Of a stretch of 64,000 nucleotides of DNA, positions 27,563 to 58,353 are shown piece by piece. This stretch comes from Opitutia bacterium (GTDB lineage Bacteria > Verrucomicrobiota > Verrucomicrobiia > Opitutales > Opitutaceae): positions 14,250-78,249 of the forward strand of contig JACQFT010000115.1 in assembly GCA_016199925.1 (NCBI GenBank), in the 5' to 3' direction. A model generated the notes under the pieces. The model searched no databases, was not told the origin of the DNA, and saw only the letters and a program-made list of their open reading frames with translations. Made by a program: the position numbers and the translations under genes. Numbering within the stretch: the first letter of the stretch is position 1; every line of letters begins with the position of its first letter.

Positions 27563-27577
27563 GGCGGAGAATACGGT

Positions 27578-29629: not shown

Positions 29630-29735
29630 AGCGCCGAAGCTTAATCCAAGGCGCGTTCGCCGACATGGGGTGTCCACCGTAAACTCGCCTCCAAATCCAC
29701 CTGTGCGCCGGGCGGGCGCTGGCGCAACGGACTCG

Positions 29736-30482
29736 TCAAGGCGCAGTTTTAGGCACCCATTCGTAGACGTGCAAACGGGGATCGCCCTCGGCGAAAGCGA
29801 CTGCGGCGGCGTAACCGACTGCCGGTTGAAGCAGGATCACGTGCCACGCCTGCTCGGCGAAAGGCTGCCCGCTGCCGGCCCAGGGCCGGCGACTGTCCGA
29901 GGACGCGGGCAGGGTGTCGTCGAGGTGGGTGCCGCGGGCTTTGACCCGCGCCTCGTGCTGCGTCCAGAGTTGGTAGAATGTTTCGCAGCGTCGGCCGGGT
30001 TCGATCTGCTGCAGCAATTCCGCTTCGGCCGGGACGAAGTAGCGCGCGGCGATCGTGTCGATGTTTTCGATCGGGCGGATTTCCTCGAGGTCGACGCCGA
30101 CCGGACGCCGCCACGCGAGCGCGAACAAGGCCAGCGCGCCCGAATGGGAAAGGTTGAACTGCAGGTCGCGGCCGGCGCCGGGTTCGCGCAGTTCCGGTTT
30201 GCCGTTCGGGCCGTAAGCGAACCGCAGGTCGACGGGCCGGACGCCGAGGTAGCAGGCGAGGATCTCGCGCAGCAGACTCCGCGCGACGGCGTAGCGGCGG
30301 CGGTTGACGGGAAAATGCAGCCGCTGCGCGCGCGTGCGTTCGTCGTCCGACAGCGAGCCGAGGAGATCGGCCAGTTCGCCGCCGACGCGGTCGAGCGCCG
30401 CGCACCACCCGTGCGCTTCGCCGACGGACAGCCGGGGCGGAACGGGGCACGGCGGCCACAGGATTTCCGGAGCGGTCGGCAT
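29736..30482 (-). CDS. Sfp-type 4'-phosphopantetheinyl transferase
   Basis: LSDDERTRAQRLHFPVNRRRYAVARSLLREILA, FNLSHSGALALFA, VGVDLEEI and WTQHEARVKARG are PPTase motifs P1-P3. The internal ATG at 30482 was chosen because the longer ORF-track form runs through the ABC gene in another frame. Confidence 0.88.
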   Translation of the reverse strand: MPTAPEILWPPCPVPPRLSVGEAHGWCAALDRVGGELADLLGSLSDDERTRAQRLHFPVNRRRYAVARSLLREILACYLGVRPVDLRFAYGPNGKPELREPGAGRDLQFNLSHSGALALFALAWRRPVGVDLEEIRPIENIDTIAARYFVPAEAELLQQIEPGRRCETFYQLWTQHEARVKARGTHLDDTLPASSDSRRPWAGSGQPFAEQAWHVILLQPAVGYAAAVAFAEGDPRLHVYEWVPKTAP

Positions 30483-30496
30483 GGACGGGAAACCCG

Positions 30497-32167
30497 CTAG
30501 CGGCCGGGTGCCACCGCCAGCGCGGACCGGACGGGCCCGGTTTCCTGGGCCGGAGCGGCGACGAGCTGGCCGTAGTCGAGCTTGAGGACGCGGTCGGCGA
30601 GATGGAAATAGCGGTCGTCGTGCGTGATCACGAGGACGGTCTTGCCGCGGTTGCGCAGTTCGGGTAGGAGCTGCCGGTAGAAAATGTCTTTGAACAACGG
30701 GTCCTGGTCGGCGGCCCATTCGTCGAAGACGTAGCACGGCCGGTCTTCGAGATAGGCGGTGAGCAGCGCGAGGCGCTTGCGCTGGCCCTGCGAGAGCGCG
30801 GTGGTGGAGAGACGGCCGTCGACGACATTCACTTTGTGGCGCAGGTGCAATTGCGCGAGATAGCCGGCCGCGTGCGCGTCGAGATCGGGCGTCGGCAGGC
30901 CGAGCAGGCTGTCGAAGAGGAAGAAATCGGCGAACACGGCGGAGAAGAGCTGGCGGTAGTCGTCGCGGTTGGCGTCGTCGACCGGACGGCCGTCGAGCCG
31001 GATTTCGCCGGTTTCGGGCGGGTAGAGTCCGGTGACGATTTTCGCGAGCGTCGACTTGCCGCCGCCGTTGCCGCCGACAAGGAACACCAGTTCGCCGGCG
31101 TGCAGGGTGAGGTTGAGCGGGCCGAGCACGAAATGGTCGTCGCACTGCTCGCGATGATACGCGTGCGTGACGCCGGCGAGTTCGAGCCGGACAAACGAGG
31201 GCGCGGCGGAGTGCGCCGGGGCGGATTCGCGATCGCGGCCGCGGGCGCCGAGCGACATGCCGAGCGCTTCGACTTTGCGCAGCGCGAGATCCGCGCGGGA
31301 GAAAACCGAAAGACTGCTCATCACGCCGGCGAGCGGGCCCATGAGATAGAGCGTCGTCAGCACGTAGCCGGTCATGGTCTTGGTGTTCACCTGCTCGTAG
31401 ACCGGGAGGAGAAACAGGATCAGGCCGATCAGGCAGTAGAAGAGGAGATGCGCCCAGTTATGCGCGAAGATGAAGCGCGTCTCGGCGGCGACGGTGTGGC
31501 GCTGGAATTCGCCGGTCGTGGCGTCGAGCCCCTGGTGCAGGAACGCGCTGCGGCGGTCGCGGTGGAGTTTCAGTTCCTTGACGCCGTCGGTGAGCGCCCG
31601 GAAGAGCGCGAAGAGTTTGTCCTCGGCTTCGCGGGCGAGGTGCAGCGACCGGAATCCGCTCGTGATGAAAAGCCGGTAGAAGCACGCGCCGAAAAGGATG
31701 AACAGGCCCATCACGAGGAGCAGATGCCACGACAGCCACCCGAGATAGATCGAGCCGCCGAGGAGAATCGCGGTGTTCACCGAGAGGGTGGGGAAGCCGA
31801 AGAGCGCGGCGGTGAGCGAGGTGACGTCTTCGGTCAACGCGGCCATGAGCCGCGGGGCGCCGAGTTCCTCGAGCTGGCGGAGCGGCACCGCGAGGATTTT
31901 GCGGACGAGTTCGCCGCGGAGGTCGGACACCGCCTGCTGCGAAAAGCGGATCAGCCAGACCTGGGAGAAATAGCCGGTGACGATCTTGCCGGCGACGAGC
32001 GCGACGAAGCCGAGCAGCAACGGGCGGGTGAGCGAGGCGGGTTCGTTGACGATGGTGTTGATGAGGGCGATCAAGCCGGCGTTGCAAACGCCGCTGAACA
32101 GGGCGGTGAGGGCGGTGACGGCGACCATGCCGCGGCATTTCAGGAGGAGAAACCGGATGAGGTTCAT
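30497..32167 (-). CDS. Cyclic-peptide-type ABC exporter (fused TMD-NBD; SyrD/PvdE/YojI-like)
   Basis: Six-helix TMD starting MNLIRFLLLKCRGM. NBD with Walker A GGNGGGKSTLAKI, signature LSQGQRKRLAL and Walker B CYVFDEWAADQDP. ATGA overlap with the NRPS gene upstream. Confidence 0.9.
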   Translation of the reverse strand: MNLIRFLLLKCRGMVAVTALTALFSGVCNAGLIALINTIVNEPASLTRPLLLGFVALVAGKIVTGYFSQVWLIRFSQQAVSDLRGELVRKILAVPLRQLEELGAPRLMAALTEDVTSLTAALFGFPTLSVNTAILLGGSIYLGWLSWHLLLVMGLFILFGACFYRLFITSGFRSLHLAREAEDKLFALFRALTDGVKELKLHRDRRSAFLHQGLDATTGEFQRHTVAAETRFIFAHNWAHLLFYCLIGLILFLLPVYEQVNTKTMTGYVLTTLYLMGPLAGVMSSLSVFSRADLALRKVEALGMSLGARGRDRESAPAHSAAPSFVRLELAGVTHAYHREQCDDHFVLGPLNLTLHAGELVFLVGGNGGGKSTLAKIVTGLYPPETGEIRLDGRPVDDANRDDYRQLFSAVFADFFLFDSLLGLPTPDLDAHAAGYLAQLHLRHKVNVVDGRLSTTALSQGQRKRLALLTAYLEDRPCYVFDEWAADQDPLFKDIFYRQLLPELRNRGKTVLVITHDDRYFHLADRVLKLDYGQLVAAPAQETGPVRSALAVAPGR

Positions 32168-35100
32168 GGGGAAAAATAGTCCGCAGCGGGAGAAGTTGCG
32201 CCGGCTTGCGCCGCGTCGAGACACCGGCGCAGCCGCGCGCTGAGCACGCGGACGTGCGGCTCCATGAAAATGTTTTCGTGCGCGCCGGGGACGTTGACGA
32301 CGTCGACGCCGCCGGCGGCGAGCGCGCCCCAGCCGAACTGCGGGTCGAACGAGCAGAGGAACGGCTGGCCGCGCGTGCGGAAGAGCGTCACGCGGCCGGC
32401 GTAGCGGCCTGACTGGTGCGTCCACAGCGCGCGCAGGTGGGTTTTCCAGAGCTGCACTTCGATTTCGGGGAAGAGCGCGACGTCGATGACTTCGTCGAGA
32501 TCGAAATCCTCCGCACTCGGCGGCCGGCTCCGGTGCGCGAGCGAACGGGTGAGCCGCCGCCACAGGGTGCGGAATTTGCGGCGCACGAACCGGCGGCGTT
32601 CAACCGGAGTCTGGTGGAGAAAATCCTGCAGCCAATAGACCGTGTTGACGGTAAACCGGAACAGAAAGACCGGCCGCCACCACGGGATCCGCCGGTAGCT
32701 CTCGTCGACCGGCGCGCTGTCGAGCAGCGCCAGCAGCGCCACCAGTTCGCCCGCGTCGGCGAGTTGGCGCGCCATCTCGTAGGCGACGTTGCCGCCGAAA
32801 CAGTAGCCGCCGAGCAGGTAGGGTCCGTGCGGCTGCACCGTCCGGATTTCGCGCACGTAGCTCGCGGCCATTTCGTCGAGGCGGGCGAACTCCGCGCCTC
32901 CGCGCATCGCGCGCGACTCGAGCGCGTAGATCGGCTGGTCGGGACCGAGATGCGGCACGAGGTTGGTGTAAGTCCACAGATTGCCGCCGCCGGCGCCGTG
33001 CACGAAAAAGACCGGCGGCCGCGCGCCCTTCTGTTGCAGTGCCACGAGCGACGAGCAGTCGGCGGCGGCGGACTCGCTTTGGGCGATGAGGCGGGCGAGC
33101 TGGGCGACCGTCGGCGCCTGGAAGAGCGAAGCGAGAGGAAGTTTCCGCCCGAACTCCGCCTCGATGTGCGCGAAGAGCCGCCCGCCCGCCAGCGAGTGGC
33201 CGCCGAGTTCGAAAAAATTGTCGTGCACGCTCACGCGATGGACGCCGAGCACGCGCGCCCAAAGCGCGGCGAGGCGCGTCTCGGTGGGATTGCGCGGCGC
33301 GCAGAACTCGGGGCCGGCGCCCGCTCCGGTGTCGCCCGGCACCGGCAGGGCCGCGCGGTCGATTTTGCCGTTGGCCGTGAGCGGGAGCCGTTCGAGCCGG
33401 ACGACAGCGGCGGGCACCATGTGGTCCGGGAGAAATTCCTGCAGGTGCATCCGCAAGGCCGCCGGGTCCGGCGCCGGCGTCCGGCACACGGCGTAGGCAA
33501 TAAGTTTTTTATCGCCGGTGCCGGCCGGATGCGCGACGACGACCGCCTGCGCGACGGCGGGATGGCGCGCGAGCACGGTTTCGATTTCCTCCAACTCGAC
33601 GCGGAAGCCGCGGATTTTGACCTGCTGGTCGATCCGCCCGAGAAATTCGATCGAGCCGTCGGCCCGCCAACGCGCGCGGTCGCCCGTGCGGTAGAGGCGC
33701 GCCCGGGGTTGCGCGCTGAACGGGTGCGGCACGAATTTTTCGCGCGTCAATTCCGGCTGGCGCAGATAACCGTCGGCCAGTCCGTCCCCGCCGGCGTAGA
33801 GTTCGCCCGGCACACCGGCGGGCACCGGTTGCAGCGCGGCGTCGAGAATGAAGACCTCGGTGTTGGCAACGGGGCGCCCGATCGGCACTGCGCTGCGCTC
33901 GGCGGGCGCGGCGTGGAAGCGGTGGCAGCAGGTGAACGTCGTGTTTTCCGTCGGACCGTAGCCGTTGATCAGCGTCGTGCCGGGGAGTTGTTCCAGGACG
34001 CGCCTGATATGGTCGGCCGAGAGCACGTCGCCGCCGGCCAAGAGCTGGCGCACGCCGCGCAAATCTTCCAACTGGTGGTCGACCATGTGGTGGAAAAGTC
34101 CGGCGGTGAGCCAGAGCGTGGTGACTTGGTGCTCGCGGATGAAGCGTCCGAACTCGGCCAGCGACGGCATCCCCGGCGGGTGGATGACGAGGCGCGCGCC
34201 GTTGAGCAGCGCGCCCCATATCTCCAGCGTCGACGCGTCGAACGACACCGGCGCGAATTGCAGGAATGTCTCGTCCGGGCCGAAGTGCGCGTAGTCGGTG
34301 TCGATGACCAGGCGCACGACGCCGCGGTGGCTGACGCAGACGCCTTTGGGTTGGCCGGTCGTGCCCGACGTGTAGCACACATAGGCCAGCGACTCGGCGG
34401 TGGCCGCGGGCGGCGGCGCGGCGGCGTCCTCGGCCGCGAGTTCGGCCGCGAGTTTGTCCAACCACACGAGCGGCGGCGCGGCGACGGCCGGCGGCGATTC
34501 GAGAGCGAGGCTGAGCGCGGGGCGGAAATTCTCTTCGGACACGACGGCGGCGACCTGCGAGTCCCGCAGCATGAACGCCAGACGGGCCGGCGGAAAGGTC
34601 GGGTCGAACGCTACGTAAGCCGCGCCCGCTTTGAGAATGCCGAGCAATGCGGCGATGAGATCGGGCGAACGCTCCAGACAGACGCCGACCAACGCTCCGG
34701 GTTTGACTCCGAGCCGCTGGAGGTGACGGGCGATCCGGTTGGCGCGGGCGTCGAGTTGCCGGTAGCTGAGCTGTCCGTCCCGGTGGACCAGCGCGACGGC
34801 GTCGGGAATCGCGGCGGCTTTTTCGGCAAAGAGCCCGGGAATCGTCGCGTCGCGCGGGTAGTCCGTTCGCTCGCCGCGCCACAGGCCGACGATCTGGTGG
34901 CGTTCGCTCGCGGTCAGCAGCGGCAGGAGGGAAATCTTTTGCTGCGGTTCCGCGGCTGCGCCGGTGAGCAGCGTGCGGAAATGCCCGAGCATTCGGACGA
35001 CGGTGTCGTGCGCGAAAAGATCCGTGCTGTATTCGGCCGTCGCGTGCAGGCCCGCCGCCGACTCGGTCAGGGAAAGCGTGAGGTCGAATTTCGCCGTGCC

Positions 35101-36369
35101 GTTGTCGAATTCGAGCGGCTGGATTTCGAGTCCGGCCAGAGCGGGCAAGGCGGCGGCGGCGCTTTGCAGGACAAACATCACCTGGAAGAGCGGATTGCGA
35201 CCCGGGCGGCGGTCGGGGTGCAGTTCCTCGACGAGTTTTCCGAACGGCAGTTCCTGGTGCGCAAAGGCGCCGAGCGTCGTCTCGCGGGTCCGGGCGAGCA
35301 GATCGGCAAACGTCGGATCGCCGGCGAGGTCGGCGCGGAAAACCACGGTGTTGACGAAAAAGCCCACGAGTTTTTCCAGATCGAGCTGCGGCCGGCCGGC
35401 GACACACGAGCCGAGGGCAAAGTCCGGTTGCCCCGAGTAGCGGAAGAGCAGCGTTTGAAACGCGGCGAGCAGGGTCATGAACGGCGTGACGCCCGCGCGC
35501 TGGCTCAGCGCCTTCGCTGCCTGGACCACGGTGGCCGGGAGCAGGATCGTGTGCGTCGCGCCGTGTGTGCTCGGCGCCGGCACGCGCGGCCAGTCGGCGG
35601 GCAGTTCCAAAGCGGGAACGCCGGCGAGTTGCGCGCGCCAATACGCGAGCGATTTCTCGGTGTCGGCGGAGCGCCCGCCGGCCCGTTCCCACACGGCGTA
35701 GTCCGCGAACTGCACGGGCAGCGGCGCCGGCGCGGCCGCGTCGCCGGCGGCGTGGGCGGCGTAGCGTTCGGCCAACTCGCGGAAAACGATGCCGAGCGAC
35801 CAGCCGTCGGAAACGATATGGTGCATCGTCAGGAGCAGCGCGTGCTCGGTCGGCCCGAGGCGCACGAGCAGCACGCGCAGCAGCCGGTCGTCGGTCAGCG
35901 CGAACGGCCGCGCGGCTTCGCGGCGGAGCAGCCGCAACAGTTCGCCGGGGCGCGCCGCTTCGGAAATTCCGGACAGATCGGCGGTGGCGGGCGCGACCGG
36001 GCCGGCGGGCAGCACGGTCTGCACCGGCTCGCCCTCGTCAACCGCGAAGGTGGTGCGGAAGACTTCGTGCCGCTGCACGAGGTCGTTGAGGCTGCGCTCC
36101 AGCGCGGGCGAGTCGAGCGGCCCGCGCAGCCGCGCAGCCTGGTAGACATTGTAGATGGCTTGGCCGGGATTGAGGCGGTCGAGAAACCACAGCCGCTCTT
36201 GGGCAAAAGAGAGCGGGATGCGCGCGCCCGGCGGCCGCGGCGGGATGGCGGCCCGCCCCAAATCGGCGGACCGCGCGGTCTGGCGCGCGCTTTGCAAGCG
36301 GCGTTCGAGCAGCGCCTGCTGGGAGCTGCTGAGATTCTGCCGGCGGAGAGTGGCTTGTTCGTTGGTCAT
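32164..36369 (-). CDS. NRPS termination module C-A-T-TE
   Basis: C: LSFAQERLWFLDRL, HHIVSDGWS. A: LAYVCYTSGTTGQPKGV, FDAS, NGYGPTENT, YRTGDRARW, NGKIDR. T: FFELGGHSLAG. TE: VFFVHGAGGGN, GYCFGG. Hand-read specificity residues are DALWLGGTFK (Val-like). Start at ATG 36369 (MTNEQ), 4 nt after the upstream stop. Confidence 0.93.
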   Translation of the reverse strand: MTNEQATLRRQNLSSSQQALLERRLQSARQTARSADLGRAAIPPRPPGARIPLSFAQERLWFLDRLNPGQAIYNVYQAARLRGPLDSPALERSLNDLVQRHEVFRTTFAVDEGEPVQTVLPAGPVAPATADLSGISEAARPGELLRLLRREAARPFALTDDRLLRVLLVRLGPTEHALLLTMHHIVSDGWSLGIVFRELAERYAAHAAGDAAAPAPLPVQFADYAVWERAGGRSADTEKSLAYWRAQLAGVPALELPADWPRVPAPSTHGATHTILLPATVVQAAKALSQRAGVTPFMTLLAAFQTLLFRYSGQPDFALGSCVAGRPQLDLEKLVGFFVNTVVFRADLAGDPTFADLLARTRETTLGAFAHQELPFGKLVEELHPDRRPGRNPLFQVMFVLQSAAAALPALAGLEIQPLEFDNGTAKFDLTLSLTESAAGLHATAEYSTDLFAHDTVVRMLGHFRTLLTGAAAEPQQKISLLPLLTASERHQIVGLWRGERTDYPRDATIPGLFAEKAAAIPDAVALVHRDGQLSYRQLDARANRIARHLQRLGVKPGALVGVCLERSPDLIAALLGILKAGAAYVAFDPTFPPARLAFMLRDSQVAAVVSEENFRPALSLALESPPAVAAPPLVWLDKLAAELAAEDAAAPPPAATAESLAYVCYTSGTTGQPKGVCVSHRGVVRLVIDTDYAHFGPDETFLQFAPVSFDASTLEIWGALLNGARLVIHPPGMPSLAEFGRFIREHQVTTLWLTAGLFHHMVDHQLEDLRGVRQLLAGGDVLSADHIRRVLEQLPGTTLINGYGPTENTTFTCCHRFHAAPAERSAVPIGRPVANTEVFILDAALQPVPAGVPGELYAGGDGLADGYLRQPELTREKFVPHPFSAQPRARLYRTGDRARWRADGSIEFLGRIDQQVKIRGFRVELEEIETVLARHPAVAQAVVVAHPAGTGDKKLIAYAVCRTPAPDPAALRMHLQEFLPDHMVPAAVVRLERLPLTANGKIDRAALPVPGDTGAGAGPEFCAPRNPTETRLAALWARVLGVHRVSVHDNFFELGGHSLAGGRLFAHIEAEFGRKLPLASLFQAPTVAQLARLIAQSESAAADCSSLVALQQKGARPPVFFVHGAGGGNLWTYTNLVPHLGPDQPIYALESRAMRGGAEFARLDEMAASYVREIRTVQPHGPYLLGGYCFGGNVAYEMARQLADAGELVALLALLDSAPVDESYRRIPWWRPVFLFRFTVNTVYWLQDFLHQTPVERRRFVRRKFRTLWRRLTRSLAHRSRPPSAEDFDLDEVIDVALFPEIEVQLWKTHLRALWTHQSGRYAGRVTLFRTRGQPFLCSFDPQFGWGALAAGGVDVVNVPGAHENIFMEPHVRVLSARLRRCLDAAQAGATSPAADYFSP

Positions 36370-36373
36370 GCGT

Positions 36374-39300
36374 TCAGTCGGTGGCGTGGGCGGAGACGAT
36401 TTCGGAAATTCGCCCGTCGGTTTCCGGAGCCTGGGCGGCAATCTCGGCGATCAGGGCTTGTTCGACCGCAGCGGCCAACTGGGCGATGGTCGGCGACTCG
36501 AAAGCGCGGCGGAGCGGCAGGTTGGTCTGAAACGCCTGGCGCACGCGCGCGAGAACCTGCGCGACCAGCAGCGAGTGTCCGCCGAGGTCGAAAAAATTGT
36601 CGTGCACGCCGACGCGGTCGCGGCCGAGCACGGCGCACCAGATTTCGGCGAGCACTTCTTCGGTGGTGGTGCGCGGCGCGACGAACGTTTCCGCCGGCGC
36701 GGCCCGGTCGTGATCGGGTGCGGGCAACGCGCGGCGGTCGAGTTTTCCATTCGGGGTGCGCGGGAGCCGGTCGAGCTGCACGAAGGCCGCGGGCAACATG
36801 TGGTCGGGCAGCGTCCGGGCGAGCGCCTGCCGCAACGCCGTCCGGTCGGGCGCCGCGGTGCCCGCGGTGAAATAGGCCACCAGACCGCGGTTGCCCGGCT
36901 GGTCCTCGCGCACGACGACGGCGCTGTCGCGCACGCCCGGTTGCTGCGCGAGCTGCGCGGCGATTTCGTCGAGCTCGATGCGGTAGCCGCGGATCTTCAC
37001 CTGGTGGTCGAGCCGGCCGAGATATTCGAGCGAGCCGTCGGGCAAATGCCGCGCCAAATCGCCGGTGCGGTAGAAGCGCGCCGGCTCGCCGCCCGCGACG
37101 GCGAGCGTCACGAATTTTTCCGCGGTCAACTCCGGCCGGTGCAGGTAGCCGCGGGCGACTCCGGCGCCGCCGATCCAAATTTCCCCTGGCAGACCCGGCG
37201 GAACAAGTTCGCGGTGGCGGTCGAGCAGGACGATTTGGGTGTTGGCGATCGGACGGCCGATCGTCACGGGGCCGTCGGGCCGGCGGAGCGCGACGGTCGA
37301 GTAGGTCGTGGTCTCGGTCGGTCCGTAGAGATCGTAGACTTTCTGCACCGACGGCAACGCGGCGAGCTGGCGCACGAGCGCGGCGGAAAGCGGTTCGCCG
37401 GCGAGATTGACCGTGCGCACGGAGACGGGAATCGCTTCGGTGCGCACCAACTCGGTGACGGCCGAGGGCACGGAGTTGATCAGCGTGACTTCGTCGCGCG
37501 CGGGCAGCGCGGAAAGTTGCAGCGCGTTGTCGGCGAGGATCACGGCCCCGCCGCGGGTCAGCGGGACAAAAATCTCGAAGACCGACAGATCGAAGCACAG
37601 CGACGTGGCCGCGAGCACGCCGCGCAATTCCTCGGCCGTAAACACATCGTGCGCCCAGTGCGCGAACGCCACGGTGTTCCGGTGTTCGATCGCGACGCCT
37701 TTGGGCCGGCCGGTGGAACCTGACGTGTAGATCACATAGGCGAGGTCGCCGGGCGTGACGCTGTCGGCGGGCTCGTCGGTTTTTTCCCCGGCCAGTTGCT
37801 CCGTCCAATGTTCGTTAAGCCGCAGCACGGCGGCGGCGGGCAGCGCCGGCGGCAACGGAAACTCCGGCGCGTGGTCGGCGACCAGCGCCGCGGCGCCCGA
37901 ATCTTCCAGCATGAACGCCAGGCGCTCGGCCTGATACGCGGGATCGAGCGGCACGTAGGCCCCGCCGGCTTTGAGAATGCCGAGCACGCCGGCGATCATC
38001 GCGGGCGTGCGCGCCGTGCAGAGGCCGACGAGGCTGCCCGCGTTCACGCCGAGCTTCCGCAGGCGGTGCGCAATCTGGTTGGCGCGGCGGCTCAGATCGC
38101 GGTAAGTCCAGCGTGTCGCGCCGTGGACGAGCGCCACCGCCGCAGGGGAACGGCGAGCCTGCTGCGTGAACATCGCGTGCAGGCAGACGCCGGCCGGGTA
38201 GTCGGCTGCCGTGCGGTTCCAGTCCACGGTCAGTTGCCGGAGTTCGTCCGGCGTCAGCAGCGGCAGCCGGTGCACGGTTTGCGCGGGCTGTTCGGCGGCG
38301 GCGCGCAAGAGCATTTCGTAGCGCTCGAGCATCCGCCCGACCGTGGCGCGGTCGAACAGCTCGGTGCTGTAGTGGCAGTCGACGGTCAAGGATCCGTCGG
38401 CGTCGGTGACGTTGAAGTTGAGGTCGAAGTTGACGAACCGTTTCGGGCCGCCCGCGAGCTGCACCTTCGTCTCGCCGTAGTGCAGGGCGCCGTGCTGCCG
38501 GCCGAGATTGAAAGTCACGTTGGTCAGCGGCACGCGGTTCGGGTCGCGCGGCAGATTCAGGCGGCGCAGCAGGGCACCGAACGGATGCTGCCAGTGTTCG
38601 AACGCGTCGAGCACGCGGCGGCGGGTGGCGTCGAGAAAATCCGCCGCGGTTTCGTTTTCGCCGAGCCGGCTGCGGATCGGCAGCAAGTTGACGCAATGCC
38701 CCGCGAGGTTCTGGCAGCCGCCGAGAATCTGCGCGGCGGCCGGCACGCCGACGACGACATCGTCCTGCCCGCTGAGCCGGTGGAGCAGCGTCGTGAACGC
38801 GGCCAGGAGGACGGTGAAGATCGTGCAGCCGTGGGCGGCGCTGTGGCGGCGGACGAGGTCGGCGAGATCGGCGGGCAGCGGCCGCGAACAATGCGCCCCG
38901 GCGTAACTGCGCCGGGCCGGGCGCGGCCGGTCGGACGGCAGGTCGAGCACCGGCACTTCGCCGGCGAACTGTGCGAGCCAAAATGTTTCCGCCGCGGCGT
39001 AGGCCGGAGTATTTCTTCGTTCGGTTTCGTGCAGGGCAAAGACGCCGAAGAGCGCCGGCGCCGGCAGTTGGGCGGTGTGGCCTCGGCGCAATGCGGTGTA
39101 GAGCTGCCCGAGTTCGTAGGCGAGCAGGCGCAGCGACCAGCCGTCGCAGACGATGTGGTGCGCGACCAGCACGAGCGCATGGCGTTCGCCGCCGAGCCGC
39201 GCGAGCCGCAGCCGCCAGAGCGGACCCCGGACCAGATCGAACGGCTCCTCGACGGCGCGGTCGACGAAGCGCGCGAGCGCCGGATTCTCGCCGCCGTTTT

Positions 39301-42622: not shown

Positions 42623-45600
42623 GGAGGGACGGCGGCGACGGGGGCGGGTTTGCGGGGGCGGACCGAGCGCTGGCGCTGGGCGCGCGCGGACGCCTGCGCG
42701 TGAAGCGGATCGGGCGCGGACGGTTCGCCGAGGCAGCGCGCGAGCGAACGGATGGTCGGATACTGGAAGAGCGCGAGCAGCGGCAGCGTGCGGCCGAGCT
42801 TCTCCTGCAGCAGCGTCTGCACCTGGGCGACGCGCAGCGAGTGGCCGCCGAGGTCGAAAAAGTTGTCGTCGGCGCCGGGGTGCTTCACGTGGAGGACGCG
42901 GCTCCAGATCTCGGCGATGGCCTGCTCGGTGCCAGCGTGCGGGGCCGAGTAAGCAGTCGCCAACCCCGGCCGGGCCGAGCCGGGCTCGGGCAGAGCAGCG
43001 CGGTCGATTTTGCCGTTGGGCGTGAGCGGCAGGCGGTCGAGCATGACGTAGGTGGCCGGCACCATGTAGTCCGGCAGATGGCCGCCGAGGAACCGGCGCG
43101 GGTTTTCGACGACGGGCGCGGGCGTCGCCGCGAGGTAGGCGATGAGCTGCTGGTCGCCGGCGTCGTCGGGCCGCGCCACGACCACGCAGTCGCGGACGCC
43201 GGGGAAGCGCAGTAGCACGCCTTCGATTTCGCCGAGCTCGACGCGGTGCCCGCGGATCTTGACCTGATGGTCGAGGCGGCCGAGAAACTCCAGTTCGCCG
43301 TTTGCGCGGAAGCGCACGCGGTCGCCGGTGCGGTAGATCCGAGCGCCGGGTTCGCCCACGAACGGATCGGGCAAGAACTTTTCCGCGGTCAGTTCCGGCC
43401 GCTGCCAGTAGCCGGCGGCCACGGATGCGCCGCCGATGCAAAGTTCGCCCGGCACGCCGATGGGCACGGGCTGCAGGTGCGCGTCGAGCACGTAGAGACG
43501 GGTGTTGGCGATGGGCCGGCCGAGCGGGATGGTCGCGCCGATCGTTTCCAAGCGATGGACGGTGGACCACACGGTCGTCTCGGTCGGGCCATACATGTTG
43601 CAGACGCGGCCCGGCAGCCCGTGGTGCAACTGTTCCGCGAGCGGCACCGGCAGCGGCTCGCCGCCAACGAGCAACCGGCGGAGCCGGCGCAACGCGGCGC
43701 GCGCGGCGGGCGTCGCGACGAGGGACTTCGCCAGCGACGGCGTGCATTGGAGGTGGGTGATCCCATGGTGGATGATCTGCTCCGCGACCGAGCGGGGCGG
43801 CACCGCGACGCGGGTCCGGCTGCGCTCATCGCATAGAAGTTTCAGACGATGGAGGTGCGGCAGGCCCGCCAGCACGGCGTCGGTGGCGACGCCAAAATCG
43901 ATGAGACAGGCGATTTCGTCGACGCCGAGACTTTTCATCCGTTCGATCGTTTCCACGCAGGACTCCGGGCTTCCGAACAAGCCGTGGCTTTCAAAGTAGC
44001 GGTCGAACGCCGCGGCGATATGCGCCGCCAGCTCAGCGGCGGAGAAGGGCACGCCCGATCCGTCCGTCGGCTGGTCGGTCAGCGAACGAACGAGATCGGC
44101 CGACTGTCGGAGAAAGGCGCAGAGCGGCCCGCGCACGGTTTCGCGGACGGCGGCGTCGTCGGGCCCGACGAAAGTGTGCAGCATGAGCGTGACGGTGCCT
44201 TTTTCCGGATCGTGCCCGTGGGCGCGCCGCGCTTCGCGGTAGACGCGGATTTTTTCCGCGAGTTCGGCGAAGCTCTGCCCGAGCAGATGGGTCAGGACGT
44301 TCGCACCCAGTTCGCCGGCCTTGCGAAATGTTTCCGGCTGGCCGGACGCGGTGAGCCAAACCGGGAGCTCCGCCTGGCAGGGGCGCGGATGGATGGCGAC
44401 TTCGATGTCGGCGTTGCTGCCGCTCGGCAAGCGCACCGACTCGCCGCGCCAGAGCCGGCGCACGACGGCGATATTGTTTTCCAAAACTTGGCGGCGGTGC
44501 GGGAAATTGTCCGGAGCCAGCGCGAAATCCCGGTCGTGCCAACCGCTCGCGAACGCCACGCCGGCGCGGCCGTGCGAGAGATTGTCGACGACCGCCCACT
44601 CCTCGGCGACGCGGAGCGGGTTGTGCAGCGGCAGCACGATGCTGCCCGCGCGCACGGCGACGCGCGAAGTGACCGCTGCCACGGCCGCGCCGGTAACGGC
44701 GGGATTGGGAAACAGGCCGCCGAACGCATGGAAGTGCCGCTCGGGCGTCCACACCGCCGAGAAGCCGTGCCGGTCGGCGAACTTGGCGCCCTCGAGCAGC
44801 AGCCGGTATTTGTCCGCCCCGTCGGCCGAAGATTCTGCGTCGCTCGCGAAGTAGAGCAGGCCGAAGTCGATTGTTTTTGCCAGCGCCGGGGCCCCGGCAA
44901 TCGGGGCCGAGGCGGCGCCTTCGGCATGGATGACGACCTTGAAGCCCCGCGTGAGCGTCCAGAAGAGTTCGAGCACCGAGATGTCGAAGGAGATCGTGGT
45001 CACCGCGAGCCAGCAGCCGGGAGCGGAGCCGGCGGGAGTTTCGGTGCCGAGCGCGCGGTCCATGCCGGCGAAAAAATTCACGATGTTGCGGTGCGTGACG
45101 ACCACGCCCTTTGGCTGGCCGGTCGAGCCGGAGGTGTAGATCACGTAGGCCGAATCGGCGGGACCGGACGCCGGCGCGGGCGACGCGGCGCCCGCATCGT
45201 TGGCATCAACCGGTTCGTCGAGGCAAACGGGGCGGACTTTCGCGCCGGCGAGGAGTCCGAGAAATTTTTTCTGCGTGAGCACGACGCCGGCACCCGAGTC
45301 GCGGACGATGTAGGCCAAGCGAGCGGCCGGGAAATTTGGATCGAGGGGGACGTAGGCGCCGCCGCTCCGCAGAATGCCGAGCAATCCGACCACCATGGCC
45401 GCGGAGCGTTCGACGCAGATGCCGACGAGCTGGCCGGGACCGATGCCGAGCGCGCGGAGGTGTTGCGCCAAGCGGGCGGCGCGCCGGTCGAGTTCGCGGT
45501 AGGAAAGCGTTTCATCGCCGCCGACCACGGCCGGCGCGTCGGGCATGCGGTCCGTCTGCGCGGCGATCAGGCCATGCACGGTCTGGTCCGACGGAAACTC

Positions 45601-47010
45601 CGCCGCGGTCTGGTTCCAGTCGACGAGAAGTTGCTGGCGCTCCGAACCCGTGAGCATGGGGAGTTTGGCAACAGGCTGTTCGGCGTCGATGGCGACGGCC
45701 TGCAGAACGGTTTCAAAGTGGAGCAGCAGCCGGCGAATCGTCGAGAGGTCGAACAGGTCGGAATCGTATTCGGCGCGGACCGCGAGGCCGAGGGCGCTGT
45801 CGACGAGGTAAAGCGTGAGGTCGATCTTCGCGGTGCCGGAATCGAGTTCGAGCTGCTCGAGGCGCAGGCCGTCCCAGGCGACGGATTCGAGCGCGGCCCG
45901 TTCGTAGGCGAACATGACCTGGAAGAGCGGAGCGCGGCTGAGCGTGCGCGCGGGCGACAGTTTCTCGACGAGTTTCTCGAACGGCACCTCGTCGTGCGCG
46001 AGCGCGTCGAGCACGGAGGCGCGGACGCGGGCGAGCAGTTCGCGGAACGTCGGGTTGCCGGTCAGGTCGGCGCGGAGGGCGAGCGGGTTGATGAAGAGGC
46101 CGACGAGAGCTTCGGTTTCCTTGCGGTGGCGGCCGGCGACGGGCGTGCCGACGAGGAAGTCGCTCTGGCCGGTGTGCCGGTGGAGCACGACCTGAAACGC
46201 GGCGAGCAACGTCATGAAAAGCGTGGCGCCTTGGCTCCGGCTAAAATTTTCGAGCGGAGCCCGGAGGTTGCCCGCGAGAGCCAGCGTCTCGACGCGGCCG
46301 TGGCAATGCTGCACGGCGGGACGCGGCCGGTCGGTGGGAAGTTCCAGGGCCGGGAGCTTGCCGGCGAGGCGATGTTTCCACCAGGCGAGTTGGGACGACA
46401 GCGCCTTGGAGCGTTCGCGTTGCCACCCGGCGTAGTCGCCGTATTGGACGGCCAGGTCGGGGAGGAGCGGGGCGCGGACGGCGCGGCGGGCGGTGCAGAC
46501 CGCCGCGAGTTCGCGGAAGAGAACCGTGAGCGACCAACCGTCGAACACGAGGTGGTGCACGTTCAGCACGAAGATGTGCTCGGTGGCGGAGAGGCGGATC
46601 AGCCGGGTGCGGAAAAGCGGTGCGTGCCGGAGGTCGAAGGGTTGCCGGGCCTCTTCGCGGGCGAGCGCGCAAGCCTGGGCTTCGCGGGCGTCGTCCGGCC
46701 GGAGCCGCAGGTCGGTCACCGGAAGCGGCACGGTCAGTTGCGGCGCGACGATCTGCACCGGCTGGCCGTCGCGCAGAGCGAAGGAAGTGCGGAGAACCTC
46801 GTGGCGGGCGACGACGACGTTGATCGCGGCCTCGAGTTCCGCGGCTTCGATCCGGCCGGTGAGGCGCACCGCGACCGGGACGTTGTAGATCGCGCGGCCC
46901 GGCAGCAACTGGTCGAGAAACCACAGGCGTTGCTGGGCGGAGGAGGCCGGGAAAAAATAGTCGCCGTCGGCGGACCGAGCGGCTGCGGCAGTGGTGTTCG
47001 CAGAATCCAT
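42619..47010 (-). CDS. NRPS module C-A(MOx)-T with a luciferase-like monooxygenase domain inserted in the adenylation domain
   Basis: C: SSAQQRLWFLDQL, HHLVFDGWS. A-N: SAYVIYTSGSTGQPKGV, ISFDISVLE. Then ~340 aa of LLM-like sequence (IDFGLLYFAS..., FSAVWTPERHF, SIVLPLHNPLRVAEEWAVVDNLSHGR, VDEIACLIDFG). A resumes with NMYGPTETT, YRTGDRVRF, NGKIDR. T: FFDLGGHSLR. Specificity residues are DILQLGMVWK (Gly-like). Confidence 0.93.
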   Translation of the reverse strand: MDSANTTAAAARSADGDYFFPASSAQQRLWFLDQLLPGRAIYNVPVAVRLTGRIEAAELEAAINVVVARHEVLRTSFALRDGQPVQIVAPQLTVPLPVTDLRLRPDDAREAQACALAREEARQPFDLRHAPLFRTRLIRLSATEHIFVLNVHHLVFDGWSLTVLFRELAAVCTARRAVRAPLLPDLAVQYGDYAGWQRERSKALSSQLAWWKHRLAGKLPALELPTDRPRPAVQHCHGRVETLALAGNLRAPLENFSRSQGATLFMTLLAAFQVVLHRHTGQSDFLVGTPVAGRHRKETEALVGLFINPLALRADLTGNPTFRELLARVRASVLDALAHDEVPFEKLVEKLSPARTLSRAPLFQVMFAYERAALESVAWDGLRLEQLELDSGTAKIDLTLYLVDSALGLAVRAEYDSDLFDLSTIRRLLLHFETVLQAVAIDAEQPVAKLPMLTGSERQQLLVDWNQTAAEFPSDQTVHGLIAAQTDRMPDAPAVVGGDETLSYRELDRRAARLAQHLRALGIGPGQLVGICVERSAAMVVGLLGILRSGGAYVPLDPNFPAARLAYIVRDSGAGVVLTQKKFLGLLAGAKVRPVCLDEPVDANDAGAASPAPASGPADSAYVIYTSGSTGQPKGVVVTHRNIVNFFAGMDRALGTETPAGSAPGCWLAVTTISFDISVLELFWTLTRGFKVVIHAEGAASAPIAGAPALAKTIDFGLLYFASDAESSADGADKYRLLLEGAKFADRHGFSAVWTPERHFHAFGGLFPNPAVTGAAVAAVTSRVAVRAGSIVLPLHNPLRVAEEWAVVDNLSHGRAGVAFASGWHDRDFALAPDNFPHRRQVLENNIAVVRRLWRGESVRLPSGSNADIEVAIHPRPCQAELPVWLTASGQPETFRKAGELGANVLTHLLGQSFAELAEKIRVYREARRAHGHDPEKGTVTLMLHTFVGPDDAAVRETVRGPLCAFLRQSADLVRSLTDQPTDGSGVPFSAAELAAHIAAAFDRYFESHGLFGSPESCVETIERMKSLGVDEIACLIDFGVATDAVLAGLPHLHRLKLLCDERSRTRVAVPPRSVAEQIIHHGITHLQCTPSLAKSLVATPAARAALRRLRRLLVGGEPLPVPLAEQLHHGLPGRVCNMYGPTETTVWSTVHRLETIGATIPLGRPIANTRLYVLDAHLQPVPIGVPGELCIGGASVAAGYWQRPELTAEKFLPDPFVGEPGARIYRTGDRVRFRANGELEFLGRLDHQVKIRGHRVELGEIEGVLLRFPGVRDCVVVARPDDAGDQQLIAYLAATPAPVVENPRRFLGGHLPDYMVPATYVMLDRLPLTPNGKIDRAALPEPGSARPGLATAYSAPHAGTEQAIAEIWSRVLHVKHPGADDNFFDLGGHSLRVAQVQTLLQEKLGRTLPLLALFQYPTIRSLARCLGEPSAPDPLHAQASARAQRQRSVRPRKPAPVAAVPP
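43830..44880 (-). other. Luciferase-like (FMN-dependent, MupA/MtaG-MOx-type) monooxygenase domain embedded between A-domain cores A4 and A5
   Basis: Bounded upstream by FDISVLELFW (A4) and downstream by NMYGPTETT (A5). The internal sequence shows TIM-barrel LLM hallmarks. Boundaries are approximate, mapped from KTIDFGLLYF (~44877) to LHRLKLLCDE (~43825). Confidence 0.8.
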
Positions 47011-47013
47011 CGG

Positions 47014-50000
47014 TCAGTTTTTCGGAGCGGCGCGGACGGGTTTGGGCGTGCCGGCCGCGGCGGGCCGATACGGCCGCCGGCGCAAGCGCACGATGCCGCC
47101 CGCCGTGCGCCGCGCTTTGGGCCGGCCGGATTTTTGTTCGAGCGCGCGGGCGAGCGCGCCGACAGTCGGGTGTTCGAAAAGACTGCGGACCGACAGCGTG
47201 CTTTGAAATTCCGAGTTGAGGCGCGAGATGACCTGGGCGGCGCGCAGCGACTGGCCGCCGAGCGCGAAGAAATCATCCTGGGCGCCGATGCCGCCGCGGC
47301 CGAGGACCTCGCCCCAGATGCGCGAGATGATTTTCTCGGTCTCGCTCGCCGGGGCGGCGAAGGGCGGGGCGGAGTCGCGGCCGAGTTTGTCGGGCCGGGG
47401 CAAGCGGGCGCGGTCGACTTTGCCGTTGGCCGTCAGCGGCCACCGGGTCACGTGGACGAAGGCGGCCGGCACCATGTGGGAGGGCAGGCGCCCGCGCAGC
47501 AGTTGGGCGAGTTCGCGCGGCGCGGGCGGGTCTTGGTCGGCCTCGGTCTGGAAATAGGCGACGAGATGAATCTGGCCGGTGCCGTCGTCGTGCGCGGCGA
47601 CCAGACATTCCTGCACGGCGCGGTGGGTTTGCAGGACGGATTCGATTTCGGCCGGCTCGATCCGGTGTCCGCGGATTTTGACCTGCTGGTCGAGGCGGCC
47701 GAGAAATTCCAACTGTCCGTCGGCGTGCCAGCGCACGAGATCGCCGGTGCGGTAGAGGCGCGCGCCGGGTTGGAAAGGATGCGGCACGAACTTTTCGCGG
47801 GTGAATTCGGGCTGATGGTGATAGCCGCGGGCGAGCCCGAGTCCGCCGAGATAGAGTTCGCCCGGCACGCCGACCGGCAGCGGCTGGCGGTGCGGATCGA
47901 GCACATACGCCTGCGTGTTGGCGATGGGGGCGCCGATCGGCGGCGCCGCCAGATGTTTGCTCGCGGTGGCCACCGGCAGCCGAGTGGCGACCACGGTGGT
48001 CTCCGTCGGCCCGTAGTGGTTGACCAGCATGCAGGGCAATTTTTCTCCGGGCCACCGGCGGAGACGGTCGCCGCCGGTGAGGATGGCGCGCAGGGCGGTG
48101 TCCGCCGGCCAGGCGACATCCATCGTCGCCTCCGCCAGCGGCGTCGGGAGGAAACAGAGGGTGATCTGCCGGTTCGCAAGCCACAGCGCCAACTGCGCGG
48201 GGTCGGCGCGGATCTCGTCCGGCGGAATGTGGACGCTCGCACCCGCGGTAAGATACGGCCAGATTTCCCAGCCCGAGGCGTCGAAGGCGGGGCTGGCGAT
48301 CTGGGTCGCCCGATCGTGCGCGGTGATCTGATAGGTCCGCTGGTGCCACGCGATGAGATTGACGAGGCTGCGGTGCTGGATCGCCACGCCTTTGGGTGTC
48401 CCGGTCGAGCCGGAGGTGTAGATGACGTAGGCGAGATGATCGGGACTCGAGAGAGCCGTCGTCGCCACCACGGTCTCCGGCGGCGAGGAGAAGGCGAGGA
48501 CGTCGTCGACGGAAACGATGCGGGAAGGACCGGCGGCAAAAACCCCGGCGAGCCGGCTCTGCGTGATCAGCACCGGCGCCTGCGCGTCTTTCAGCATGAG
48601 GGCCTGGCGCTCCGCCGGATATTCCGGATCCAGCGGCACGTAGGCCCCGCCGGTTTTCAGCACGGCGAGCAGGCTGACGACAAAGTCCACCGAGCGCGGC
48701 AGGCACACGCCGACGCAAACTTCCGGGCCGACACCGAGCAAAAGCAGCCGGCGGGCCAGAGTGTTGGCCTGCAAATTCAGGTCGCGGTAAGTCACATGCC
48801 GGCGCTGGTCGACGACGGCCACGGCATCGGGCGTGCGCGCCGCCTGTTTCTCGAACAAGTGGTGGACGCAGAGAATCTCGTCGCAGTCGGCCTCCGTCCG
48901 GTTCCATTCGAGCAGAATGCGATGGCGCTCGGCCGGCGTGAGCAGCGGGAGTGCGCTGATCGGCGCTTCCGGATGTTCGGTGAAGCCGTGCAGCAGCGTG
49001 ACGAGGTGGCCGAGCATGCGGCCGACGGTCTCGTCGTCGAAGCGCAACGGATCGTAGAGGAGGCGGAGCGAGAGTTCGTCGCCGCCGACGGCGTCGAGCG
49101 CGAGCGGATAACTCGGCTGGCTGCGGATGCCGAAACGCCGGCGCCGCCAGACGCCGCCCTGGGCTCTCAGGGCCTGGTCCCAGCTCGGTTCCTGATAGTT
49201 GACGATGCTCTCGAACAGCGGCGTGCCGCGCGGGACATCGGTCCAGCCCTGCAGCTCGGTGAGCGGAGTGTTTTCGTAAGGCCGCAGCGCGGTCCAGAAT
49301 TCGCGCAGCGCCTGCAGCCACACGACGGCGCTCTGCGTCGGCGGCAGCGCCACGCGGACGGGCACGGTGTTGATGAGCAGCCCGACGATGGATTCTGCAT
49401 TCTCCACCGTCGTGTGCCGGCAGGCGCGCACGGCGCCAAAGACCACGTTGTCCTCGCCGCTGTAGCGGCCGAGAAGCAGGGCCCACGCGCCCTGGATGAG
49501 CGTGTTCAGCGTCAGGCCGTGCCGGTGCGCGAATTGTTTCATCGTCGCGTGGCGCGCCGCCGGGAGCGTGAGCTCGCGTCCGCGGTGCACGGAGAGTTCG
49601 GCGGGCGCCGCGGCGGAGACGCTCTTCGCGCCGGGCAACGGCGTCGGCGAACCGAATCCCCGCAGCACGCGGCGCCAGAAAATCTCGGCGTCGCCCCAGT
49701 CGAGCGTCTGCAACCAGTCGATGTAGTGGCGATAGTCGACCGGTGGCGCGACCGCGGGTTCGCCGCCGATCCGGAACGTGTCGCTCGCCGCGAAAACTTC
49801 CGCGAGCAGGATCGCCAACCCGCGCCCGTCGAGCAGCAGGTGGTGGAACGTGAACACGACGCGGTGTTCGTGGTCGCCGGTCTGCGCGACGGCGACCCGC
49901 CAGAGCGGCGCCTGGTCCGGGGCAAAGCCGCGGGCGCGGTCGGCGGCGAGCAGCTCCTCCCACTGGCGCTCGCGCTCGGCGGGGCGCGCCGCGCGCCAGT

Positions 50001-50289
50001 CGTGCCAGACGATTTGTGGCGACACCTCCGCGTTGACGACCTGCCGCGGCTGCCCGGATTCTTCCCGGTGAAACGAGGTGCGCAGGATGGCGTGCCGTTG
50101 CGCGGCCCAGCGCCAGGCCCGCTCGAAGGCCGCGAGTTTCAACGGTTCCGGGAGCGTGATCAGCAGTTGCTCCACATCCACTCCGGGCCGCGGGGCGAAC
50201 GTGCTGTGAAACAACATTCCCTGCTGCATGGGCGAGAGTGGGTAGGCGTCGTTCAACTGGGCCAGCGGCATGGGGCGGTCGGATTTCAC
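47014..50289 (-). CDS. NRPS module C-A-T (first gene of the assembly line)
   Basis: C: YPLSPMQQGMLFHS, HHLLLDGRG. A: LAYVIYTSGSTGTPKGV, FDAS, NHYGPTETT, YRTGDLVRW, NGKVDR. T: FFALGGQSLR. Specificity residues are DAWFLGHVVK (closest to Leu-type DAWFLGNVVK). The codon at 50289 is GTG. An alternative ATG (MPLAQL) lies at 50271. Confidence 0.92.
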   Translation of the reverse strand: MKSDRPMPLAQLNDAYPLSPMQQGMLFHSTFAPRPGVDVEQLLITLPEPLKLAAFERAWRWAAQRHAILRTSFHREESGQPRQVVNAEVSPQIVWHDWRAARPAERERQWEELLAADRARGFAPDQAPLWRVAVAQTGDHEHRVVFTFHHLLLDGRGLAILLAEVFAASDTFRIGGEPAVAPPVDYRHYIDWLQTLDWGDAEIFWRRVLRGFGSPTPLPGAKSVSAAAPAELSVHRGRELTLPAARHATMKQFAHRHGLTLNTLIQGAWALLLGRYSGEDNVVFGAVRACRHTTVENAESIVGLLINTVPVRVALPPTQSAVVWLQALREFWTALRPYENTPLTELQGWTDVPRGTPLFESIVNYQEPSWDQALRAQGGVWRRRRFGIRSQPSYPLALDAVGGDELSLRLLYDPLRFDDETVGRMLGHLVTLLHGFTEHPEAPISALPLLTPAERHRILLEWNRTEADCDEILCVHHLFEKQAARTPDAVAVVDQRRHVTYRDLNLQANTLARRLLLLGVGPEVCVGVCLPRSVDFVVSLLAVLKTGGAYVPLDPEYPAERQALMLKDAQAPVLITQSRLAGVFAAGPSRIVSVDDVLAFSSPPETVVATTALSSPDHLAYVIYTSGSTGTPKGVAIQHRSLVNLIAWHQRTYQITAHDRATQIASPAFDASGWEIWPYLTAGASVHIPPDEIRADPAQLALWLANRQITLCFLPTPLAEATMDVAWPADTALRAILTGGDRLRRWPGEKLPCMLVNHYGPTETTVVATRLPVATASKHLAAPPIGAPIANTQAYVLDPHRQPLPVGVPGELYLGGLGLARGYHHQPEFTREKFVPHPFQPGARLYRTGDLVRWHADGQLEFLGRLDQQVKIRGHRIEPAEIESVLQTHRAVQECLVAAHDDGTGQIHLVAYFQTEADQDPPAPRELAQLLRGRLPSHMVPAAFVHVTRWPLTANGKVDRARLPRPDKLGRDSAPPFAAPASETEKIISRIWGEVLGRGGIGAQDDFFALGGQSLRAAQVISRLNSEFQSTLSVRSLFEHPTVGALARALEQKSGRPKARRTAGGIVRLRRRPYRPAAAGTPKPVRAAPKN

Positions 50290-58264: not shown

Positions 58265-58353
58265 TCTGCCCGCGCCCACGTTGTCCTACAACGCCGCGCG
58301 CGACCGACAGGTCGAGGCGCGGCGGTTGCTGGGGCGCAACGCCGGGCCGATTC

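Follow-up and report, generated by a model that had tools for sequence, protein, structure and literature searches.

In the myxothiazol and melithiazol pathways, the glycine-activating adenylation (A) domain of MtaG or MelG carries a luciferase-like monooxygenase of the TIGR04020 family, inserted between motifs A4 and A5. This enzyme is proposed to hydroxylate the alpha carbon of glycine, after which the carbinolamide is cleaved into a terminal amide and a glyoxylyl thioester on the thiolation (T) domain (PMC10204066). In solanimycin biosynthesis, the monooxygenase of SolF sits between motifs a8 and a9 instead, and the alpha-hydroxyglycine is kept within the chain. Solanimycins A and B show that this hydroxylation is optional and that the chain is extended further (PMC10204066). 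Thioesterases (TEs) with a cysteine nucleophile are linked to demanding ring closures (PMC6668435). Here we describe a gene cluster that has both an embedded monooxygenase (MOx) and a cysteine TE. It lies at positions 29736-50289 of a 64,000-nucleotide stretch of DNA from an Opitutia bacterium (contig JACQFT010000115.1 of assembly GCA_016199925.1). This whole stretch is called the window below.

Judged from its genes, the cluster is probably an intact, native orphan hybrid of a nonribosomal peptide synthetase (NRPS) and a cis-AT type I polyketide synthase (PKS), with five colinear modules. The window has a G+C content of about 69%, and the six long minus-strand open reading frames of the cluster have the high third-position GC of real genes. 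Together they span 20.5 kb. The megasynthase frames are uninterrupted and their catalytic motifs are all intact, which excludes a chance origin. The G+C fraction of the cluster is 0.691, and that of the flanks 0.673 and 0.678. Because these values match, the cluster looks native and not like a recent import.

The genes are tightly packed. Between the stop of NRPS1 and the start of NRPS2 (47014/47010) there is a 3-nt gap, which reads TGA CCG ATG in the junction sequence. NRPS2 and the hybrid PKS/NRPS3 gene overlap by ATGA (42619/42622), 4 nt separate PKS/NRPS3 from NRPS4 (36374/36369), and NRPS4 again overlaps the ABC exporter gene by ATGA (32164/32167). From the ABC stop at 30497 it is 14 nt to the first ATG of the phosphopantetheinyl transferase (PPTase) gene, at 30482. 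An initial annotation, made from the letters alone, had claimed six co-directional minus-strand genes with such junctions, and its coordinates are reproduced by the list of open reading frames and by the junction sequences.

Pfam finds condensation (C), A and T domains in NRPS1 (C-A-T, 1091 residues) and in NRPS2 (1463 residues), where a Bac_luciferase domain splits the A domain. PKS/NRPS3 (2082 residues) has a ketosynthase (KS), an acyltransferase (AT) and an acyl carrier protein (ACP), followed by C-A-T. NRPS4 (1401 residues) is C-A-T-TE. Next come a fused ABC permease/ATPase and a PPTase of the ACPS type. This is exactly the module order that had been read by eye: C-A-T, C-A(MOx)-T, KS-AT-ACP-C-A-T, C-A-T-TE. 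As in modular NRPSs, all four C domains retain HHxxxDG, there are four sets of A3/A4/A5 motifs and four GK(I/V/L)DR motifs, and the T domains have LGGHSL three times and LGGQSL once. As in a cis-AT type I PKS, the KS has TACSTS, HGTGT and NIGH, the AT has GHSLGEY and HAFHS, and the ACP has GFDSL; the matching Pfam families are PF00109, PF02801, PF00698 and PF00550. None of the domain types is new, nor is the overall logic of the assembly line. What is uncommon is an internal MtaG-type MOx that feeds a KS, and the cysteine TE, both of which are conserved in the family to which the cluster belongs.

The MOx domain matches TIGR04020, the MupA/Atu3671 family, over the full profile (positions 1-341 of 341), scoring 495.4 bits where the cut-off is 244.45. 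PF00296 (Bac_luciferase) covers NRPS2 residues 721-1032, in the middle of the A domain. The insertion lies between A4 (FDIS, residue 675) and A5 (NMYGPTE, residue 1138). This means that the A4-A5 spacing in NRPS2 is 463 residues, where each of the other A domains has some 88-92. The MOx module is the second of five, and the KS comes next, about 1.2 kb downstream.

The likeness to MtaG and MelG is that a glycine A domain is interrupted at A4-A5 by a monooxygenase of the same family. The difference is that their module is terminal and followed by a TE, from which the terminal amide is released, whereas the module here is internal and hands its chain to a KS. The remaining pathway is unrelated. 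Module 4 of SolF, from Dickeya solani, is like the module here in being an internal glycine module with an embedded flavin monooxygenase, and its optional hydroxylation has a parallel in relatives of the present cluster that either have or lack MOx. It differs in the place of insertion (a8-a9 rather than A4-A5) and in the rest of its line, a polyene PKS and then an iterative serine module. The NCBIfam model for SolG gives 553 and 542 bits here, far from its cut-off of 2200, so the cluster is not a solanimycin cluster by that measure.

An A(MOx)-T directly before a KS, with 1.2-1.3 kb from the end of MOx to the start of the KS, also occurs in three otherwise unrelated lines: those of a Burkholderiales metagenome-assembled genome (MAG), Pseudoduganella flava and a Pseudorhodobacter MAG (L043, L054 and L055). 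These were picked by similarity to the PKS gene, so any count of such junctions is biased. Fused C-A-T-C-A(MOx)-T proteins of 2500 residues from Acidobacteria and Gemmatimonadota (52% identity) were considered as orthologues of NRPS1 plus NRPS2 and rejected: only the MOx module is related, and the first module is 36% identical and LCL-like. An example is the different and much larger line on a 284-kb ENA contig (contig_109, L082), where a 4964-residue NRPS initiated by a fatty acyl-AMP ligase (FAAL) and an ACP precedes such a fused C-A-T-C-A(MOx)-T protein, with 52% identity to NRPS2. The next genes there are a set of the methoxymalonyl-ACP type (3HCDH, ACP, acyl-CoA dehydrogenase, HAD/FkbH-like, methyltransferase), and then a KS-AT-KR PKS.

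In the PKS module, the KS has its active-site Cys182 in TACSTS (codon 42077-42079) as well as HGTGT and NIGH, so the Cys/His/His residues reported earlier are all there. The AT motifs GHSLGEY and HAFHS are those of a malonyl-type AT, again as first read, and the attachment residue of the ACP is Ser957 (GFDSL). No ketoreductase (KR), dehydratase (DH), enoylreductase (ER) or methyltransferase domain is matched by Pfam in the cluster. The distance from HAFHS to the ACP serine is about 230 residues, the usual post-AT linker, which leaves no room for a KR, DH or ER; the initial annotation had likewise seen none. As a likeness of architecture rather than of compared sequence, NosB of the nostopeptolide pathway also has a KR-less KS-AT-ACP in an NRPS line. 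It extends a peptidyl chain by one malonyl unit, keeps the beta-keto group and is followed by a C domain. The flanking modules are different.

The substrates of the A domains were read by aligning their A4-A5 segments to a reconstructed segment of GrsA PheA. On this realignment the four codes came out identical to the ones read by hand before: DAWFLGHVVK, DILQLGMVWK, DLFNNALTYK and DALWLGGTFK, for modules 1, 2, 4 and 5. The first is the canonical leucine code with a histidine for asparagine at position 322. The other three are standard glycine, alanine and valine signatures according to established specificity-code tables.

The nucleophile motif of the TE is GGYCFGG, with Cys1190 in place of the usual serine, a feature that went unmentioned in the initial annotation. 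Aligned to the skyllamycin-type 7CRN, the closest TE of solved structure, the cysteine falls at the nucleophile position (GWSLG). Candidate partners in the catalytic triad are Asp1217, 27 residues after the cysteine, and His1364 (GAHE), near the C-terminus. The nucleophile is a cysteine in all seven of the family TEs that are visible. The obafluorin synthetase ObiF likewise has GxCxG replacing GxSxG in a terminal NRPS TE. ObiF uses this cysteine to turn a beta-hydroxy amino acid into a beta-lactone, and its aspartate is on strand beta6. In the present cluster, valine is the predicted last residue (DALWLGGTFK), without a beta-hydroxy or beta-amino group, and the aspartate is at the usual distance of some 27 residues after the nucleophile. 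In one relative (L084, 16384-19140) the last module has the canonical threonine code DFWNIGMVH, which together with the family's cysteine TE would fit beta-lactone formation like that of ObiF; the contig ends before the TE.

NRPS1 opens directly with a C domain, C1, in which HHLLLDG is intact and conserved among the orthologues. Its highest similarity score is with the first C domain of McyB (303 bits), followed by the acyl-accepting C domain of PvdL (220), BacC (208) and TycB (176). The starter C domain of SrfA-A and the DCL domain of SrfA-C both score 160. No FAAL, acyl-CoA ligase or fatty-acyl ACP is found in the cluster or in the window. In addition, none of the orthologous loci with upstream sequence (about 20) has an NRPS, an epimerisation (E) domain, a FAAL or an ACP upstream of NRPS1. 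The surfactin cluster also lacks genes for fatty-acyl activation, which means that FAAL and ACP are not obligatory for lipopeptides that begin with a starter C domain. The cluster is like surfactin in that its first module opens with a C domain and that a loading A-T is absent. It is unlike it in that SrfA-A has a starter C domain, whereas C1 groups with DCL domains by similarity. An active C domain at position 1 would most simply mean N-acylation with a donor from primary metabolism. Of the earlier label 'lipo/peptide-polyketide', the NRPS/PKS hybrid part stands; the 'lipo' part can only be inferred, given a DCL-like C1 and no FAAL or ACP.

The cluster does not stand alone. Relatives were gathered from scans of species-representative genomes and metagenomes, with look-ups of single homologues added. 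The genome scan with PKS/NRPS3 gave mostly generic PKS and NRPS matches, yet it did yield syntenic loci in Opitutales; the scanned set contained neither the source genome nor Opitutus sp. GAS368. Proteins 100% identical to NRPS2 and PKS/NRPS3 are recorded on an 85-kb contig of an Opitutae bacterium MAG (MBI3885789.1). The closest relative, a soil-metagenome contig from JGI (L081), has the same four megasynthase genes at 69-74% identity. The cultured Opitutus sp. GAS368 has homologues of two genes at about 72%, those of NRPS2 (SDS42466.1) and PKS/NRPS3 (SDS42428.1). All in all, about 20 loci share the gene order at 44-74% amino-acid identity, under the labels Opitutales, Opitutaceae, Lacunisphaera and Verrucomicrobia. 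The cluster is thus one copy of a widespread family of soil Verrucomicrobia and not a singular oddity. When the PKS/NRPS gene was run by megablast against a plasmid database, the matches were all short and generic (70-80%), and no related cluster appeared.

Conservation within the family was counted over 16 loci plus the window. The A1 code DAWFLGHVV is found in 12 of the 16 loci, with DAWTLGHVV, DAWFFGHVV and DAWFLGNVV as variants, and module 2 has a glycine-type code in all family loci compared. The PKS module invariably reads KS-AT(GHSxGEY/HAFHS)-ACP-C and leaves no space for a KR. Nine loci have the MOx insertion, and five that are otherwise colinear lack it (L083, L084, L087, L092 and L117). 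In these MOx-minus sisters the A4-A5 spacing is about 90 residues, and three of them also have two pocket residues changed (DILAFGL[VI]W). The last two A codes vary. They are for alanine and valine in the window, L081 and L083, and elsewhere DLFNFAGTF, DIFSAALVY, DVFSNAVVY, DALFIGATI and, in L084, the threonine code DFWNIGMVH. In an Opitutales MAG (L001, 7155-14928) an extra C-A-T module (DYGFMGATI), placed after the PKS/NRPS gene and before the gene with the TE, makes a longer variant. This pattern points to a constant part, X-Leu*-Gly(±OH)-beta-keto-C2 together with the cysteine TE, and a C-terminal peptide that varies.

Locus L084 (protein P0129) is from a MAG labelled 'Candidatus Angelobacter sp.', which is in Acidobacteriota in NCBI taxonomy, yet it has the verrucomicrobial WecG-STAS and GT4 neighbours described below. 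The mismatch suggests either a binning or labelling problem or the transfer of the whole block.

From all this a biosynthetic scheme can be proposed. C1 would N-acylate leucine with an acyl group that primary metabolism supplies as acyl-CoA or acyl-ACP. Glycine would then be condensed, and MOx would hydroxylate the alpha carbon of the (acyl-Leu-)Gly thioester bound to T2. The KS would take over this chain and add one malonyl unit, of which the beta-keto group stays, giving a 4-(acylamino)-4-hydroxy-3-oxobutanoyl unit. After the addition of alanine and valine, the chain would be R-CO-Leu-NH-CH(OH)-CO-CH2-CO-Ala-Val-S-T, with the hydroxyl retained as in solanimycin B. Retention is favoured because the MOx-minus sisters keep all other modules, and because the optional hydroxylation seen in solanimycins A and B goes together with further extension. 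Finally, the chain would pass to the cysteine of the TE and be released, probably through cyclisation, for which the conserved N-terminal half would supply the nucleophile. A cyclising release is weakly favoured by the link between cysteine TEs and demanding ring closures, and by the candidate nucleophiles in the invariant part of the molecule. A siderophore was also considered and rejected: chelating residues are not predicted, and the window has no TonB-dependent receptor or uptake genes.

Several points weigh against this scheme. The MOx domain is at the very position it has in MtaG and MelG, where hydroxylation is proposed to cleave the carbinolamide. C1 is closest to DCL domains, so N-acylation is not established, and among the loci compared the best non-orthologous relatives of C1 follow E domains. 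The A1 pocket differs from the canonical leucine code in a single residue, histidine for asparagine, and this histidine is conserved; its substrate may be an analogue of leucine instead of leucine itself. More generally, the residues assigned from the A codes are predictions only. What the genes by themselves predict is a small peptide-polyketide.

The principal alternative, which the initial annotation had not considered, is scission as proposed for MtaG and MelG. The hydroxylated glycine carbinolamide would collapse into (acyl-)Leu-NH2 and a glyoxylyl thioester, which would then be the starter for the KS, alanine and valine steps. There would be either two products, or modules 1 and 2 would act as a sacrificial leader. 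The MOx is of the same NCBIfam family and in the same A4-A5 position as in MtaG and MelG, scission is the accepted proposal for myxothiazol and melithiazol, and acyclic alpha-hydroxyglycine amides are intrinsically labile (PMC10204066). Still, we consider scission unlikely here. The module is not terminal, and what follows it is a KS instead of a TE. Five colinear MOx-minus sisters keep modules 1 and 2 along with the same downstream modules, which is hard to square with a mere cleavable leader, and solanimycin B shows that a hydroxyglycyl intermediate can be extended. With MOx in nine loci and missing from five colinear ones, optional tailoring fits better than an obligatory splitting of the chain.

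Another alternative concerns the start of the chain, where C1 could be silent or use a small donor that is not a fatty acid. The cysteine TE would then join the free amine of leucine to valine, giving a head-to-tail cyclic peptide-ketide. This would suit a C1 that is DCL-like and not a classical starter C, the absence of a FAAL, acyl-CoA ligase or ACP from cluster and window, and the membership of the exporter in the 'cyclic peptide export' family. On the other hand, HHLLLDG is intact and conserved, and a C domain of 450 residues that is kept at the head of about 20 orthologous lines implies a function. Starter C domains of the surfactin type moreover use acyl-CoA from primary metabolism without ligases in the cluster. 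We consider this reading quite improbable.

The exporter and the PPTase turned out as first annotated. The ABC protein scores 508.3 bits with TIGR01194, the cyclic-peptide-export family (cut-off 286.2), and its residues 3-537 cover profile positions 8-549 of 554. For the PPTase, PF01648 and PF22624 are both above their cut-offs, and the HetI equivalog model gives 165 bits against a cut-off of 370. On these scores, it is an Sfp-type enzyme and not a HetI equivalog. A motif search in six frames found no MbtH-like gene. The features of the cluster and its surroundings are collected in Table 1.

Table 1 Features of the cluster and of the rest of the window, in window coordinates.
Feature	Position	Strand	Evidence and remarks
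NRPS1, module 1, C(DCL-like)-A-T	47014..50289	-	Pfam; A code DAWFLGHVVK (Leu-like); HHLLLDG
NRPS2, module 2, C-A(MOx)-T	42619..47010	-	Pfam, NCBIfam; A code DILQLGMVWK (predicted Gly)
MOx domain, FMN-dependent luciferase-like monooxygenase	43840..44865	-	TIGR04020; NRPS2 residues 716-1057
Hybrid PKS/NRPS3, modules 3 and 4, KS-AT-ACP then C-A-T	36374..42622	-	Pfam, motifs; A code DLFNNALTYK (predicted Ala)
NRPS4, module 5, C-A-T-TE	32164..36369	-	Pfam; A code DALWLGGTFK (predicted Val)
Thioesterase domain, Cys nucleophile	32167..33015	-	GGYCFGG; Cys1190 codon 32800-32802
ABC exporter, fused permease and ATPase, cyclic-peptide-export family (SyrD/PvdE/YojI type)	30497..32167	-	TIGR01194, Pfam
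Sfp/HetI-like 4'-phosphopantetheinyl transferase	29736..30482	-	PF01648 and PF22624
WecG/TagA/CpsF glycosyltransferase-STAS (anti-sigma antagonist) fusion	50368 or 50449 to 51672	+	Divergent, upstream of NRPS1
WecG-STAS and GT4 glycosyltransferase pair	50368-52817	+	
Choice-of-anchor-P/post-COAP-1 protein, two large subtilisin-like proteases (795 and 971 aa)	52908-61106	+	Between GT4 and a response regulator/PAS hybrid kinase pair
GspD-like secretin, then GspE/PilB-like ATPase	25877-29677	-	58-112 nt after PPTase
Polysaccharide/regulatory region	2061-25300		LuxR-type response regulator, PAS histidine kinase, SpoIIE-type phosphatase, STAS protein; GH9 cellulase with CelD_N, several GT2/GT4, hexapeptide acyltransferase, phosphodiesterase, DUF2334 protein, O-antigen-ligase-like protein

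As the table makes clear, the cluster is embedded in a neighbourhood of polysaccharide and regulatory genes. This raises the possibility that it is functionally part of a locus for exopolysaccharide (EPS) and partner switching, with a surface-active or signalling product tied to EPS or biofilm. The WecG/TagA-STAS and GT4 pair adjoins NRPS1 in about 20 family loci (L081, L083, L084, L086-L100, L117, L121, L003, L009, L004 and L166). As in a Lacunisphaera MAG (L085), where the order ABC-PPTase-secretin-ATPase is the same, the PPTase gene of the window is followed by the secretin and GspE-like ATPase genes. The remainder of the window is taken up by genes for EPS glycosyltransferases, STAS and SpoIIE proteins and PAS kinases. 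Conversely, the WecG-STAS/GT4 pair is found without any NRPS in two other contigs (L167 and L168), one of them from a Verrucomicrobiae MAG, and the right-hand gene order is wholly syntenic with Lacunisphaera, for which shared ancestry suffices. The linkage is best read as inherited synteny, which is no proof of a shared function, and a functional coupling to EPS seems decidedly improbable.

The secretin scores 290 bits, short of the 351 that its equivalog model requires, and no further type II secretion components are seen near the secretin and ATPase genes. On the other side of the cluster, the kinase directly follows the GT4 gene in L009, which means that the protease block is variable.

It is very improbable that the product has already been characterised, in MIBiG or in literature outside the search, which covered few papers in subscription journals: a full-text search turned up no matching pathway, no product-specific name occurs among the 120 best homologues of NRPS2 or PKS/NRPS3, and the highest-scoring product-specific models of NCBIfam (solanimycin SolG, aureusimine AusA and myxochelin MxcG) stay far below their cut-offs. 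The search covered MOx domains, hydroxyglycine and the nonribosomal peptides of Opitutaceae, Lacunisphaera and Verrucomicrobia; within this scope it gave only the precedents cited above, and no pathway with the domain order of the cluster was found. This agrees with the initial annotation, which did not recognise the order as that of a characterised pathway.

There is a small chance that the product has a scaffold without any described relative and is the first natural-product class of free-living Opitutaceae. Such a scaffold would have a retained internal alpha-hydroxyglycine beside an unreduced beta-keto unit, and the invariant cysteine TE would close it into an unusual ring, at the oxygen of the carbinolamide or the enol or at the active methylene. 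Alternatively, and within the same small chance, the line would cleave itself midway by means of MOx. Should self-cleavage be true, the recurring junction of A(MOx)-T to KS would be a general, uncharacterised biosynthetic motif. The sisters with and without MOx offer a natural comparison for the role of a luciferase-like monooxygenase that is embedded at A4-A5 in a module that is not terminal. Similarly, the purpose of an invariant cysteine TE in the absence of a beta-hydroxy residue can be addressed through the family.

Verrucomicrobia are abundant in soil and chemically almost unexplored, and the only products met in the literature search are from marine symbionts (palmerolide). At 20 kb and with its own PPTase and exporter, the cluster is compact and self-contained. 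With homologues of two of its genes in the cultured Opitutus sp. GAS368, and with about 20 metagenomic loci that carry it, this makes it a practical target for heterologous expression. It will mainly be of interest to natural-product specialists.

Some minor points concern the ends of the operon. Scans there gave no sigma-70 promoter between the NRPS1 and WecG genes and no intrinsic terminator on the minus strand between the PPTase and secretin genes, and both scans are uninformative. NRPS1 starts at GTG 50289 or at ATG 50271, and the JGI gene call of a 69%-identical homologue matches the ATG. For the PPTase, the sequence makes ATG 30482 the most likely start, not 30500.

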